DNA from: a phage
Length of the DNA stretch: 64,000 bases
Sequence record: PZ496581.1
Strand: one strand, 5' to 3'
Under the pieces are notes generated by a model. The model worked only from the letters and a program-made list of their open reading frames with translations. It did not search any database and was not told where the DNA came from. Shown one piece after another: positions 26,958-30,068 of the stretch; within the stretch, counting starts at the first letter, position 1; each line of letters opens with the position of its first letter. A program made the position numbers and the translations under genes.

Positions 26958-27326
26958 TTAATTAAATTTGTTTAAACGTTCAATACACTGGACGTAGTTA
27001 TTCGCGATTTGTTTCTGGGTAGGCTCTTTACCGGTTGTTTCAACATAGCGAATGAATGCGATTTCAGTAGCCTGTAAGCAATGTTCTTTAACGCGTTGTT
27101 CTTTTGACAATGCTACAGTATCAGAGTCACGATAACGTTGAGCATGGGCATCAGCTTGAATCATTCGATTACCTACAGTAACCGGGTCTTCCACTTCAAC
27201 TTTAGGTTGGTCGTACTGTTTAACATTCGGATTGTAAATCAATTGGCCGACGTTATTAGGGATAAAGCCATGGGCACCACATCCGGTTAATCCAAACACC
27301 ATTGCTAAAGCGATTAATTTTTTCAT
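26958..27326 (-). CDS. putative lipoprotein
   Basis: 122 aa; signal peptide with lipobox-like LTGC. Confidence 0.5.
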   Translation of the reverse strand: MKKLIALAMVFGLTGCGAHGFIPNNVGQLIYNPNVKQYDQPKVEVEDPVTVGNRMIQADAHAQRYRDSDTVALSKEQRVKEHCLQATEIAFIRYVETTGKEPTQKQIANNYVQCIERLNKFN

Positions 27327-27354
27327 TTCAATTTCCTCTGTAGTTGATAGAAAG

Positions 27355-27383
27355 ATAGTAACACAGTATGTGGTGCTTGTAAA
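27355..27383 (-). promoter_or_regulatory. sigma70-type early promoter
   Basis: GTTTAC - 17 nt - TTACTAT. Confidence 0.45.
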
Positions 27384-27386
27384 CAG

Positions 27387-27599
27387 CTATTTTAAACTTT
27401 TGCGAAATTTGCGTTTTTCTTGACGAATCTGTCGTTTAGTCGGACGTACAGCAAATTTAACGAAGTCCACTTTGCCGTGTGGAAACTTTTCAGATGCTTC
27501 GCAGTCCATCATTAGTTCCCATCCTTCCAGAATAAGAGCTTTCCATTGTGTAGTTGATGCAAATTCGTATGTTGATGGTTTAAACACAGTTGAATACAT
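27387..27599 (-). CDS. hypothetical small basic protein
   Basis: Trimmed to MYSTVF...; C-terminus VRPTKRQIRQEKRK resembles 55345..55515. Confidence 0.45.
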   Translation of the reverse strand: MYSTVFKPSTYEFASTTQWKALILEGWELMMDCEASEKFPHGKVDFVKFAVRPTKRQIRQEKRKFRKSLK

Positions 27600-27600
27600 A

Positions 27601-27792
27601 TTATCCTCTGAAATCAGCTTCAAAAACTTTCTCGTCATTAACAAATGCTTTAACTAATGCTTTGTTCACTTCAGCAAGTTGTACCGTAACCCACTCGATT
27701 TCTTCGCGATCACCTGATAACATGATATCTTTAGTGAACATCTCACCGCTTTTAAACCAACCGATAAAAGTAACTTTAGTTAATTTGCTCAT
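27601..27792 (-). CDS. dmd: Dmd antitoxin
   Basis: ~63 aa from internal ATG; ...FIGWFKSGEMFTKDI...AEVNKALVKAFVNDEKV...RG matches T4 Dmd as recalled. Confidence 0.8.
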   Translation of the reverse strand: MSKLTKVTFIGWFKSGEMFTKDIMLSGDREEIEWVTVQLAEVNKALVKAFVNDEKVFEADFRG

Positions 27793-28106
27793 ATTTCCTC
27801 GCAAAATGCCCATTCAGCGTGATAAACTGTAGCACCTTTAGTATTATTCATTTGAACTACGTCTACCGGAGAAATTACTCGATAGAGACGTGGTTCACCT
27901 CCATAAGAGCGTGCTGCTCGTCCTGCATAAATCTTTGCTAAACCGATATCTTCAGTAAAGAATACACGATCCAAGTTTTTCTTACGTCCAGTTTCAGACA
28001 GAACTCCTGTTTCCTCAGGAGGACAAAGCATGTTTTCGATGTTAGCTGAACTACTTGAACCGTGATAAAAAATCTTAAATTCTGCTTTACAATCGATGGT
28101 TTTCAT
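27789..28106 (-). CDS. hypothetical protein with H-G-S ... Y-F motif (possible mini ADP-ribosyltransferase-like fold)
   Basis: 105 aa; FYHGSSS...DRVFFTED...IYAGRA pattern reminiscent of PARP/Tpt1 NAD-binding core. Confidence 0.45.
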   Translation of the reverse strand: MKTIDCKAEFKIFYHGSSSSANIENMLCPPEETGVLSETGRKKNLDRVFFTEDIGLAKIYAGRAARSYGGEPRLYRVISPVDVVQMNNTKGATVYHAEWAFCEEI

Positions 28107-28128
28107 TTTGTTCTCCAGTAGTTGATAG

Positions 28129-28161
28129 GACTATAATAACACAACTACTGGAGAAGTAAAC
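28129..28161 (-). promoter_or_regulatory. sigma70-type early promoter in stem-loop
   Basis: GTTTAC - 17 nt - TATTAT; 12-bp inverted repeat CTCCAGTAGTTG / CAACTACTGGAG. Confidence 0.55.
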
Positions 28162-28536
28162 TTAAAAACGTAATTTAGATATATCTGCGTTGATTTCGTT
28201 TTGGTTTGCATCGTATGCAATTAAACGAACCGCTTTAGATGGGTCATTCAATGCATAGAAATGATGGAACATTGCTCGAACGATATCACCATTTACGAGT
28301 TCTACCTGGATAGGAGAACCTTTTTCGAGTTGGAAATGTTCATAAGCTTTGATGGTTCGTAGATAATCAAGTTTTTGATTTCCGGCTCCAACTATTTGTA
28401 CGATACGTTTGCCCATGTTTTCCATACGAGATACAATAGTTTTAGGAGCAAGAATAACGTAGGTTGCCAGTGGAGAAACTACTTCAACAGTTGTGTTTTC
28501 GGTGATTGCAGTAAAAATTGCTTGAGACATATTCAT
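28162..28536 (-). CDS. hypothetical protein
   Basis: 124 aa ORF with early promoter. Confidence 0.5.
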   Translation of the reverse strand: MNMSQAIFTAITENTTVEVVSPLATYVILAPKTIVSRMENMGKRIVQIVGAGNQKLDYLRTIKAYEHFQLEKGSPIQVELVNGDIVRAMFHHFYALNDPSKAVRLIAYDANQNEINADISKLRF

Positions 28537-28565
28537 AATGTTTTCCTCTTGGTTGGTGTAAGTAC

Positions 28566-28594
28566 ATCATATCATGCCTAGAGGAAGATGTAAA
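28566..28594 (-). promoter_or_regulatory. sigma70-type early promoter
   Basis: GTTTAC - 18 nt - TATGAT. Confidence 0.5.
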
Positions 28595-28600
28595 CCCCGA

Positions 28601-28624
28601 AAGGAGACCGAAGTCTCCTTTTTT
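28601..28624. terminator. UUCG/CGAA hairpin after gene 41, terminator-like on both strands
   Basis: GGAGAC-cgaa-GTCTCC; T6 follows on plus strand, A6 precedes. Confidence 0.45.
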
Positions 28625-28625
28625 A

Positions 28626-30068
28626 TTAAAATTTTAACTCATTGGCTAAGCTATCTAGGTCAGCACGTGTTGCTTTGGCTTTACCTACGCGTTCCGTACG
28701 ATTCACCTCTGCCTGACGCATCTGAGCACCTGCGTTTTCATTTACTGTGTTAGGTGTGTTCATGCCTTCTTGCTCAATCTCAATCCATTTCTGGTTGCCT
28801 TTACGTACACCCATCAGGAATTTATTCCACTTATTCTTATCACCATATCGTGATTTGATTTGTTTGATAAGTTGTTGTTCAGCTTGTGCAAGTTCTTCGG
28901 TTTCAATTACGGCCAACATGAAATCTGCCGTTGCTGGTAAACCTGCTGATTCTGCGATATCACTCATGTTCATATCCGAAGCATCCCATGCTGCACGTCC
29001 TACTTGAGCTGCAGTCCATAGAACCGTTTCAGATTCTACTGCTAATGCACGAAGTTCTTCTGCGATAGCTTTAACTAATGTGTAGCTATTTTCAGTGTAA
29101 ACTCTGATACGACAAGACCCACAAATACCTAAGTAATCAACCATGATTACAGATGGCACAAAGTTCTTCTTAAGTTTTAACTCATTAAGCAATGCACGGA
29201 ATGTATTAGCATTAGCTCCACCAGTAGGATACTGTTTAACTACTAAACGTCCTAATGTGGATTTTGAACGCCATTTTTCCATCTTGGCTTTATATTCAGC
29301 ATAAGATACGTTACCATCATCGATATCATCGAGTGATACGTCAAGCATGTTTGCATCTATACGCTTAGCACAAACTTCTTCAGCCATTTCCATGGAAATA
29401 TAAAGAACATTATGACCTGTTTGAAGATAATCTGCAGCAAGTGAACAAAGGCCTAAAGATTTACCAACGTTAACACCGGCCATTAAAACGTTTAGTGTAC
29501 CTGTTTCAGCACCACCTTTAGTGATTTTATTCAAAATGTTTAATTTGAACGGGACCTTACGTGCTTTATTTAGATAAGAAAGCCAGCGTGCTTCGTAGTC
29601 TTCCATCCAGTCATGTCCAACATAACTATCGAACGAAATTGAAAGTGCTTGACGCATAATATCAGGAATAGCTCCTACGTCAGGCATTTTCTTGTTACGT
29701 TGTTCTGGAGGTAGTTCAGCATTAGACTGAATCTCAATGATTTTGGATGTAGCATTATACATCGCTTTTTGCTGGACATATTTCTCAGTTTCTTTAACCA
29801 ACCATTCATGGTCTTCAGGAGTATCAGCCAATTTTTCAATTAGGTCTGAAGTTCCTTTATATTCGGCTTCAGTTAAAGAACTGTTATCTAAAGCCACCTT
29901 TAACGCATTGATAGATGGCATTGCATTATATTCGTTAACGTGGCTCTTTATAATTTTAAAGACATTTTTTGCCGGTCCACGCTCAAAATACTCAGAATCC
30001 ATATAAGGCCAGACCTTAGAAAAATAAGCCTGGTCATATACGAGATGAGACAAAATAATTTCTACCAC
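28626..30068 (-). CDS. 41: replicative DNA helicase (DnaB-like)
   Basis: 480 aa; Walker A GVNVGKS; T4 gp41 size and position. Confidence 0.9.
   Translation of the reverse strand: MVEIILSHLVYDQAYFSKVWPYMDSEYFERGPAKNVFKIIKSHVNEYNAMPSINALKVALDNSSLTEAEYKGTSDLIEKLADTPEDHEWLVKETEKYVQQKAMYNATSKIIEIQSNAELPPEQRNKKMPDVGAIPDIMRQALSISFDSYVGHDWMEDYEARWLSYLNKARKVPFKLNILNKITKGGAETGTLNVLMAGVNVGKSLGLCSLAADYLQTGHNVLYISMEMAEEVCAKRIDANMLDVSLDDIDDGNVSYAEYKAKMEKWRSKSTLGRLVVKQYPTGGANANTFRALLNELKLKKNFVPSVIMVDYLGICGSCRIRVYTENSYTLVKAIAEELRALAVESETVLWTAAQVGRAAWDASDMNMSDIAESAGLPATADFMLAVIETEELAQAEQQLIKQIKSRYGDKNKWNKFLMGVRKGNQKWIEIEQEGMNTPNTVNENAGAQMRQAEVNRTERVGKAKATRADLDSLANELKF

Follow-up and report, generated by a model that had tools for sequence, protein, structure and literature searches.

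A 105-aa protein encoded next to dmd in an RB69-type phage is a predicted minimal ADP-ribosyltransferase with a possible counter-defence role

The gene directly upstream of dmd in an RB69-type phage encodes a 105-aa protein, which we interpret as a stand-alone, minimal and phage-specific ADP-ribosyltransferase (ART) related to Arr and Tpt1, that is, as an NAD+-using enzyme of early host takeover or counter-defence and not as a toxin with Dmd as its antidote. We put the probability of this reading at roughly 55%. The protein would bind NAD+ and transfer ADP-ribose to a target conserved across gamma-proteobacterial hosts; it would act in the first minutes of infection, either in host takeover or in counter-defence, and would not be a toxin in need of Dmd. 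About a hundred genes of T4-type phages still await a function, and the interval that runs from 41 to 61 is a hotspot of counter-defence, with Dmd directed against RnlA/LsoA, TifA against ToxN and AdfA against DarT. The predicted ART gene heads this cluster; over 600 sequenced phages, infecting hosts of clinical relevance, possess it. Neither the ART prediction nor the pairing with dmd is new, as both have been published (PMC9503650), and the GenBank/RefSeq records of HX01, Phynn, VAC13 and DLP1 already name the orthologue 'ADP-ribosyl transferase'. A literature search found no paper on the RB69 homologue, RB69ORF040c, by name or on an Arr-like phage ART.

The analysed window comprises 64,000 nucleotides of sequence record PZ496581.1, and its source phage is an RB69-type Mosigvirus (99.1% identity). 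Following the minus strand, the gene order is 41, 124-aa ORF, 105-aa ORF, dmd and tifA:

28626..30068, minus strand: gene 41, encoding the helicase gp41
28162..28536, minus strand: 124-aa ORF, homologue of RB69ORF041c (ORF list, RB69 match)
27789..28106, minus strand: 105-aa ORF with ART fold, homologue of RB69ORF040c, PHROG 2110 (ORF list, family profiles)
27601..27792, minus strand: dmd, 63 aa (Pfam Dmd, E = 8.9e-22; RB69 annotation)
27387..27599, minus strand: gene 61.4/tifA homologue (Pfam DUF7279, E = 5e-20; RB69 annotation)

The first-pass annotation had noticed two extra ORFs between genes 41 and dmd, which are direct neighbours in T4. Indeed, both ORFs lie where it had placed them, and in T4 the two genes are separated by a gap of 59 bp. 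The ORFs are 98–100% identical to RB69ORF040c and RB69ORF041c and, judged by sequence, are real conserved genes. They are 'extra' only relative to T4, which may equally have lost the ART gene, since the order 41-ART is also seen in Dhakavirus and Kanagawavirus. Profiles of the 105-aa family found no match anywhere in the T4 genome translated in all six frames (best E = 0.028, as compared to 3.4e-60 for the window, which served as positive control). ORFs on the plus strand that overlap the region are short, none exceeding 80 aa, and the database annotation consists here of minus-strand CDSs only.

The two genes have very different relatives. The 124-aa ORF belongs to PHROG 10668 and has no match in Pfam, NCBIfam or PADLOC beyond noise; its homologues form just 2 clusters among 5.8e9 proteins, its family is confined to 135 phage records, nearly all from Mosigvirus, and its AlphaFold model is unusable (pLDDT 36). 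Homologues with 52% and 34% identity occupy the same place upstream of ART-dmd. It is thus a lineage-restricted, fast-evolving orphan that forms a separate cassette bounded by promoter/stem-loop (PeSL) elements. The 105-aa family, in contrast, comprises 140 protein clusters at 60–98% identity with matches in 610 phage records, and its hosts include Escherichia, Klebsiella, Acinetobacter, Aeromonas and Vibrio. Among 50 Straboviridae sequences 21 positions are invariant, and in the broad family of 51 sequences H15, G16, E38, A57 and Y60 are still without exception. The ART is 88.6% identical to its JS10 and 77.9% to its PEi20 counterpart, whereas the values for gp41 are 68.4% and 64.4%. By these two comparisons, in both of which it exceeds the conservation of the helicase, the ART is evidently under unusually strong constraint.

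Candidate control elements accompany both ORFs:

28603..28618, minus strand: hairpin GGAGAC-TTCG-GTCTCC immediately 3' of the gene 41 stop (read from the sequence)
28566..28594, minus strand: early-promoter-like site TTTACA-17-TATGAT, TG-extended, upstream of the 124-aa ORF (scan, 10 of 12 matches)
28133..28160, minus strand: early-promoter-like site TTTACT-16-TATTAT upstream of the 105-aa ORF (scan)
28111..28155, minus strand: 14-bp stem-loop of the PeSL type (−24.7 kcal/mol, z = −4.9, 0 of 200 shuffled sequences as stable)

It had been suggested earlier that each ORF has its own early promoter. A promoter-like site does precede each of them, and the one in front of the 105-aa gene is conserved across lineages; the scan by itself, however, is not above chance (6 sites versus 3.7 ± 2.2 expected). 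The site at 28566..28594 belongs to the GGGGTTTACA motif, which is typical of T4-type early promoters. The element GTTTAC-N17-TAT(T/A)AT precedes the 105-aa orthologue in six other lineages, including Dhakavirus, Kanagawavirus and phages of Aeromonas and Acinetobacter, and the same element precedes dmd in T4. In the stem-loop at 28111..28155, the −10 hexamer is located in the loop and the 3' arm holds the Shine-Dalgarno sequence GGAG of the 105-aa ORF (28113–28116). A metagenomic relative, L017, has the same stem-loop architecture with compensatory changes in the arms (−20.2 kcal/mol, z = −5.8). We also considered this stem-loop as an intrinsic terminator and rejected the idea, as no U-tract follows and the loop contains the promoter −10. 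At the gene boundary before each of the two ORFs, inside a hyperplastic region, an early promoter of the T4 type thus stands together with a stem-loop, which matches the PeSL cassettes outlined by Arbiol et al. 2010 (PMC2839356) and Comeau et al. 2014 (PMC4122927). This architecture is said to mediate modular gene shuffling; beyond that outline, the stem of the window, like that of L017, includes the Shine-Dalgarno sequence of the ART gene in its pairing. The hairpin at 28603..28618 resembles the terminator part of a composite terminator/promoter element of this kind. It was not flagged in the terminator scan, as no T-run follows it on the 3' side, and hairpins of the type GGAGC-TTCG-GCTCC are also present 3' of gene 41 in JS10, PEi20 and ABTNLsp5.

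The stop codon of the ART gene overlaps the start codon of dmd in an ATGA (27792–27789), and the 105-aa gene is predicted to be translationally coupled to dmd. Probably, it heads an early ART-dmd-tifA unit with tifA as the last gene. In T4, dmd and tifA form one early unit, and TifA of RB69 inhibits ToxN (PMC9391042).

What identifies the 105-aa protein as a putative ART is its fold in combination with a set of conserved residues. The motifs that had first drawn attention to it are present, namely FYHGSSS at residues 13–19, DRVFFTED at 46–53 and IYAG at 59–62. Structure prediction, which had been proposed as a check, yielded an ART fold, including the split beta-sheet core, in the predicted model; a fold unrelated to ART or Tpt1 is not what emerged. 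Foldseek returned Arr as best match, at a weak E value of 0.12, and the closest solved fold is that of the NAD lobe of Tpt1, an RNA 2'-phosphotransferase. At the sequence level, the 105-aa protein alone matched nothing in Pfam (none even at E ≤ 1), NCBIfam, PADLOC or the PDB sequences, and a narrow family profile (A1) found no match in the PDB; Arr is reached by the broad-family profile (A2) only, which hits Arr-ms (2HW2/9IAF) with E = 8.3e-5 and pairs H15, F49, E38 and R41 of the 105-aa protein with H19, Y49, E40 and R43 of Arr. Conversely, the Pfam Arr-ms model is matched by 26 of 51 distant family members at E ≤ 0.01 (best E = 1.4e-10), some of which exceed its 25-bit cut-off.

The candidate NAD-pocket residues are H15-G16-S17, F49, Y60, E38, R41 and E103. 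The histidine motif [FY]-H-G-[ST] is present, its H15-G16 being invariant in all 50 Straboviridae and 51 broad-family sequences and aligned to H19-G20 of Arr. The position of the triad Tyr is taken by F49, a nearly invariant Phe, and the second aromatic residue, the invariant Y60, follows 11 residues later, a spacing that we take to equal that of Y896/Y907 in PARP1 and Y54/Y65 in diphtheria toxin. The protein thus appears to keep the His, the beta-strand aromatic residue (F49 for Tyr) and the second aromatic residue of the ART NAD pocket. As catalytic acid both E38 and E103 are candidates: E38 is invariant throughout the family yet sits in the loop between strands 1 and 2, and the T4-like clade keeps E103 without exception, whereas most distant members have Val, Ile or Lys there. 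The likeness to H-Y-E ARTs or Tpt1 that was originally proposed is in part sustained by the ART fold, the His motif and the Arr-linked profile; it does not extend to Tpt1 proper, as an RNA lobe is missing, and a Phe stands in for the triad Tyr.

This Phe, together with the fact that no acidic catalytic residue is fixed at one position family-wide, could mean that the protein is an inactive member of the fold, which would act as a sponge for NAD+, ADP-ribose or an ADP-ribose-derived signal or would block a host protein; phages are known to deploy sponges for immune signals. We regard this as highly improbable, as the (near-)invariance of His, Gly, E38, R41 and two aromatic residues in very distant members is typical of an enzyme pocket, Phe is still able to stack on nicotinamide, and in polyvalent proteins the domain is accompanied by further enzymatic effectors.

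A second question is whether the ART is tied to its neighbour. Iyer, Burroughs, Anantharaman and Aravind (2022, Viruses 14:1977, PMC9503650) predicted a pair of a 'p0068-like' ART and Dmd in phages of Escherichia, Shigella and Salmonella, and interpreted it as a toxin-antitoxin system. The 105-aa family is probably the same family, by matching description, and the arrangement reported there is exactly that of the window, RB69, JS10 and ABTNLsp5. Accordingly, the ART could be the toxin of a type II module, possibly acting on RNA, that is restrained by the Dmd encoded downstream. Apart from the published proposal, this interpretation can draw on the ATGA overlap, on one phage with two tandem Dmd paralogues after the ART and on the direct adjacency of both genes in the window, RB69, HX01, JS10, L017 and ABTNLsp5. 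Mosigvirus, Dhakavirus and a divergent lineage from metagenomes keep this adjacency despite Dmd identities of 49–67%. However, ATGA overlaps are frequent among early units of the T4 type, and what a virulent phage would gain from an addiction module is not obvious. In addition, the distribution seen here differs from a fixed pairing in that ART occurs mostly without Dmd and Dmd mostly without ART. Seven lineages (Kanagawavirus, Slopekvirus, Pseudotevenvirus, Lazarusvirus/Tegunavirus, Biquartavirus and two Vibrio phages) have no Dmd within 2.5 kb of the ART according to tblastn, which a very divergent Dmd could escape, and the genes downstream of the ART encode unrelated membrane or periplasmic peptides in these cases. 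T4, on the other hand, has Dmd but no ART in its genome. In the records, 801 for Dmd and 610 for ART, the host names listed in common are Escherichia, Shigella and Citrobacter, and neither Klebsiella nor Acinetobacter, Aeromonas or Vibrio is among the Dmd host names listed (10 of 16). Across the range the two genes hence do not co-occur as a unit, and this largely independent distribution weakens an obligate toxin-antitoxin relationship, which we consider very unlikely. Small ORFs that overlap the ART stop codon in other genera were inspected as cryptic Dmd analogues and dismissed; they encode hydrophobic membrane peptides or a periplasmic protein without similarity to Dmd.

The 105-aa protein may instead be an anti-defence effector, because it probably shares an early unit with dmd and tifA, whose products are both established inhibitors of RNase toxins of the host, and because the ART domain also occurs in polyvalent proteins delivered with the virion. 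These are proteins of 1,500–3,900 aa into which the same domain is built along with ART-PolyVal, PhageMin_Tail, CHAP, LPD23, GNAT and Toprim. In other settings, the domain is part of a portal-ART-2H phosphoesterase fusion or is found alongside NUDIX. The 2H phosphoesterase to which one relative is fused also weakly matches Pfam Acb1 (22 bits, under the 27-bit cut-off).

The 105-aa protein is neither a Tpt1 nor an Arr in the strict sense, because the defining features of each are missing. It scores below the gathering threshold of the Arr model (PF12120) and is 38 residues shorter than Arr (2HW2, 9IAF; ~140 aa), lacking the C-terminal part that binds rifamycin. D84 of Arr, located in the motif DPN[VL], is catalytic and 100% conserved (PMC6092378). 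In the 105-aa family it has no conserved counterpart, as the profile alignment stops at E82 of Arr and the next positions are variable and hydrophobic or Asn; the SN[YF] loop of Arr is likewise absent, the loop reading T-G-V...E-x-G-R-K-K-N instead. The basic RKKN insertion is peculiar to the 105-aa family and places a GRKKN loop at the position of the active-site entrance loop of Arr. These differences bear on the idea that the protein, like Arr, modifies a small molecule, ADP-ribosylating a diffusible compound (an anti-phage metabolite resembling an antibiotic, or a nucleotide that signals in immunity) and no macromolecule. Arr is the sole family linked by sequence and the best Foldseek match, 105 aa leave no separate domain for target recognition, the 2H phosphoesterase and NUDIX partners of relatives belong to families acting on nucleotide derivatives, and phage ARTs of the Arr family have been discussed as such modifiers (PMC9503650). 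Nevertheless, given the loss of the Arr-specific elements and the basic loop in their place, and with no candidate compound known for hosts as unlike as Escherichia, Acinetobacter, Aeromonas and Vibrio, we judge a small-molecule target unlikely.

Tpt1/KptA (9LD3, 7KW9) differs as well. These enzymes have ~180 aa and an N-terminal RNA-binding lobe that contributes part of the active site and is absent from the 105-aa protein, and neither profile nor single-sequence searches detected a match between the two families. The catalytic tetrad of Tpt1 is Arg-His-Arg-Arg; in the 105-aa protein the residue preceding H15 is Tyr, not Arg. For the preferred reading, an enzyme that acts early on a conserved host target, the context makes us lean towards an anionic, RNA-linked acceptor, which would be a terminal phosphate of RNA or DNA or an RNA-handling protein. 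This leaning is based on the unit probably shared with two RNase-toxin inhibitors, on the NAD lobe of Tpt1 as closest solved fold, on the basic loop at the entrance position and on the fusion of relatives to 2H-phosphoesterase and NUDIX domains. A bolder and rather doubtful extension would be that the protein represents the smallest working ART, uses a non-protein, phosphate-bearing acceptor, provides the third, enzymatic arm of an ART-Dmd-TifA 'anti-RNase-toxin' early operon, and has its activity supplied pre-made by the injected polyvalent proteins of other phages. Acceptors would then be sought among RNA or DNA ends made or needed by RNase-type host defences, or nucleotide immune signals. 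Once found, the substrate would establish an activity new to the Arr/Tpt1 branch of ARTs and could also account for the same domain in injected polyvalent proteins.

AcrIF11 (6KYF), a phage anti-CRISPR ART of similar size that modifies protein, is also a close structural neighbour of the 105-aa protein, which speaks against an RNA-linked acceptor; a relationship between AcrIF11 and the 105-aa family was not detected at the sequence level. AcrIF11 occurs in phages and plasmids of Pseudomonas and acts on one specific residue of Cascade, whereas the 105-aa family is far more conserved and has a far broader host range than a typical anti-CRISPR. The ARTs Alt, ModA and ModB of T4 belong to the R-S-E clade, comprise 200–680 aa and are unrelated in sequence to the 105-aa family, which T4 lacks. 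They are likewise made early or delivered with the virion and act on host RNA polymerase and translation factors, ModB attaching RNA to proteins, and thus provide a functional precedent for a 'first-strike' ART.

By its sequence, the window is an RB69-type Mosigvirus: the stretch 27300-28700 is a 99.1% match to RB69 (AY303349) over its full length and matches about 130 related phages at >95%. Every gene from uvsX to 61.2 lies on the minus strand, and the coordinates and strand-implied ORFs of the first-pass annotation, which had placed two extra genes between 41 and dmd, proved correct:

28626-30068, minus strand: gene 41, following uvsX and 40 in the gene list
28162-28536, minus strand: 124-aa ORF, homologue of RB69ORF041c (ORF041c)
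27789-28106, minus strand: 105-aa ORF, homologue of RB69ORF040c (ART)
27601-27792, minus strand: dmd (Pfam Dmd, E 9e-22)
27387-27599, minus strand: 61.4/tifA (DUF7279)
next after 61.4/tifA, minus strand: imm.1, imm, sp, 61.2

For 61.4/tifA, the mechanical ORF (27387-27644, 85 aa) begins at a TTG within dmd; in the RB69 annotation the start is the ATG at 27599, one base past the dmd stop codon (70 aa). The extra genes are confirmed, and they are extra only as compared with T4. There, dmd does follow 41, as the first-pass annotation stated, after a gap of 59 bp, and profiles of the 105-aa family gave no match in the complete T4 genome translated in all six frames (best E 0.028; window as positive control, E 3.4e-60). 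In Dhakavirus JS10 and Kanagawavirus PEi20, 41 is directly followed by the 105-aa gene, and because this order recurs, T4 may have lost the gene. Directly 3' of the gene 41 stop codon, the window carries a hairpin with a TTCG tetraloop (GGAGAC-TTCG-GTCTCC, 28603-28618, minus strand), which the terminator scan missed since no T-run is present there. The equivalent position holds GGAGC-TTCG-GCTCC in JS10 and in Salmonella phage vB_SalM_ABTNLsp5, and GAGGC-TTCG-GCCTC in PEi20.

The stop codon of ART and the start codon of dmd overlap (ATGA, 27792-27789), and ART, dmd and tifA likely form one transcription unit. Upstream of the ART gene lies a T4-type early-promoter-like element (GTTTAC-N16/17-TATTAT, 28160-28133, minus strand); six further lineages have it upstream of their orthologue, and it resembles the promoter driving T4 dmd-tifA (PMC9391042). 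Dmd inhibits RnlA/LsoA and TifA inhibits ToxN, all of them host RNase toxins (PMC9391042); AdfA (61.2, anti-DarT) is encoded further downstream. The promoter is enclosed by a 14-bp stem-loop (28111-28155, minus strand; -24.7 kcal/mol, z -4.9), with the -10 hexamer in the loop and the Shine-Dalgarno GGAG of the ART gene within the 3' arm. Read-through transcripts from upstream would thus have the ribosome-binding site paired in the stem and be poorly translated for ART, whereas transcripts begun at the ART promoter would lack the 5' arm, leaving the site free for efficient translation. A metagenomic relative (L017, 475-512) has the same design with compensatory changes in the arms (CTCCAGTAGTTG/CAACTACTGGAG versus CTCCTGGTTAG/CTAACCAGGAG); the corresponding stem is weak in JS10 and PEi20. 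PMC2839356 and PMC4122927 describe such promoter-early stem-loops (PeSLs) as hot spots of recombination through which T4-type phages shuffle modules, which would explain why the location of the ART gene varies between genera. ORF041c occurs in Mosigvirus (135 records) and as two divergent homologues only, upstream of ART-dmd in all three lineages. No family was detected for it, with just two clusters among 5.8 billion proteins, and its AlphaFold model is unusable (pLDDT 36); it evolves fast and has a promoter/terminator-like boundary of its own, consistent with an accessory cassette bounded by PeSLs.

The motifs reported for the 105-aa protein are present (FYHGSSS, residues 13-19; DRVFFTED, 46-53; IYAG, 59-62). 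Single-sequence searches matched solely PHROG 2110, a group without known function. The family comprises 140 clusters (60-98% identity) and 610 records from phages of Escherichia, Klebsiella, Acinetobacter, Aeromonas, Enterobacter, Cronobacter, Vibrio and others; an alignment of 50 diverse Straboviridae sequences has 21 invariant positions, among them H15, G16, R41, K43, N44, F49, T51, D53, Y60, R63, G69, G70 and E103. Structure prediction, proposed as a check in the first-pass annotation, yielded from this alignment a confident AlphaFold model with an ADP-ribosyltransferase fold (pLDDT 87.9, pTM 0.78). Its top Foldseek match, and the only one with a probability >0.2, was the rifamycin ADP-ribosyltransferase Arr (probability 0.98, TM 0.58; E 0.12, a weaker search result), and the third BFVD match was a phage protein carrying an Arr-type annotation (E 1e-7). 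Searching 1.84 billion representatives with a profile returned 227 relatives, 51 of which make up the broad alignment A2. A2 matched Arr-ms (2HW2/9IAF) with E 8.3e-5, and 26 of its 51 members individually matched Pfam Arr-ms (best E 1.4e-10). In the HMMER alignment, H15, E38, R41 and F49 correspond to H19, E40, R43 and Y49 of Arr, whose H19 and Y49 have been named as NAD+-binding residues (PMC6092378); H15, G16, E38, A57 and Y60 are invariant in the broad family. Evidence from the predicted fold and from profile-profile comparison supports an ART-fold protein and, at the level of fold and pocket, the suspected H-Y-E/Tpt1-like NAD core.

The assignment is already known as a prediction, and the literature search turned up no experimental study of the family. 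Orthologues are labelled ADP-ribosyltransferase in HX01 RefSeq, Pantoea phage Phynn, Klebsiella phage VAC13 and Acinetobacter phage DLP1. We tested the HX01 label rather than trusting it alone, because automatic RefSeq names nearby look unreliable (NC_018855, L001 1159-1800: 'iduronate sulfatase' for Imm.1, 'DNA polymerase' for gp61.4/TifA). Iyer et al. 2022 (PMC9503650) speculate on RNA substrates and propose that a 'p0068-like' ART, probably of the present family, and Dmd constitute a toxin-antitoxin pair. Adjacency of ART and Dmd is kept in Mosigvirus, Dhakavirus and one divergent metagenomic lineage, but no Dmd was detected within 2.5 kb of ART in Kanagawavirus, Slopekvirus, Pseudotevenvirus, Lazarusvirus/Tegunavirus, Biquartavirus and two Vibrio phages, the small ORFs after ART in those phages encode unrelated membrane or periplasmic peptides, and T4 has Dmd and lacks ART. 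Moreover, the 801 Dmd records are, among the host names listed, almost all from Escherichia, Shigella, Yersinia and Salmonella phages, whereas >300 ART-bearing records come from Klebsiella, Acinetobacter, Aeromonas, Enterobacter, Cronobacter or Vibrio phages. These mostly separate distributions argue against an obligate pair, which we regard as improbable; a local functional link may be compatible with them. In ABTNLsp5 (L018 2754-3152), ART is followed by two Dmd paralogues in tandem, the first of 64 aa (48% identity to the window Dmd; annotated 'translational repressor protein') and the second of 67 aa (64% identity).

ART is more conserved than the adjoining essential helicase gp41, both relative to JS10 (88.6% versus 68.4% identity) and to PEi20 (77.9% versus 64.4%), while its neighbours Dmd (49-67%) and ORF041c (34-52%) evolve fast (L008, L009, L017 and L018 compared). 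This constraint points to an enzyme whose substrate is conserved, rather than to a protein that binds a variable defence protein stoichiometrically, although lateral exchange of the cassette could contribute. Related 250-290-aa proteins (PHROG 7439 and 7204; cross-matches 1e-9 to 3.5e-13) are encoded upstream of ART in Klebsiella phage Miro (L004 1593-2468) and Aeromonas phage 31 (L005 1680-2441) and may represent a second conserved neighbour; Cronobacter phage leB has an ORF of the same size in that position (L010 1595-2464).

The ART domain also occurs within giant phage proteins of 1,500-3,900 aa, beside ART-PolyVal, PhageMin_Tail, CHAP, LPD23, GNAT and Toprim domains; fusion proteins bearing it include P0173 (954 aa), P0168 (1955 aa), P0138 (3735 aa) and P0143 (3924 aa). 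Architectures comprise a lambda-type portal with ART and a 2H phosphoesterase/Acb1-like domain, ART-PolyVal with ART and NUDIX, and a tape-measure-like protein (PhageMin_Tail) with ART. Both the 2H and the NUDIX partners have ADP-ribose or nucleotide derivatives as substrates. The giant proteins are the 'polyvalent' virion-delivered effectors of PMC5512222, and the domain's presence there fits an effect exerted at the very start of infection. An anti-defence role of ART is plausible. Its most likely mechanism would be to mono-ADP-ribosylate a conserved host target early on, in an NAD+-dependent manner, and we lean towards an RNA-linked or otherwise anionic acceptor. ART, not novel as a prediction, is a worthwhile experimental target.

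Strict membership of the known families did not hold. Tpt1 (RNA 2'-phosphotransferase) membership fails, and identity with Arr was rejected: the family has no conserved counterpart of the catalytic D84 in the DPN[VL] motif or of the SN[YF] loop, and the window protein ends at residue 105, without the C-terminal rifamycin-binding part of Arr (length about 143). The candidate catalytic glutamate, E103, does not vary within the T4-like clade, and its position is taken by hydrophobic or basic residues in most distant members. In place of the missing Arr features, the 105-aa family has a basic G-R-K-K-N loop.
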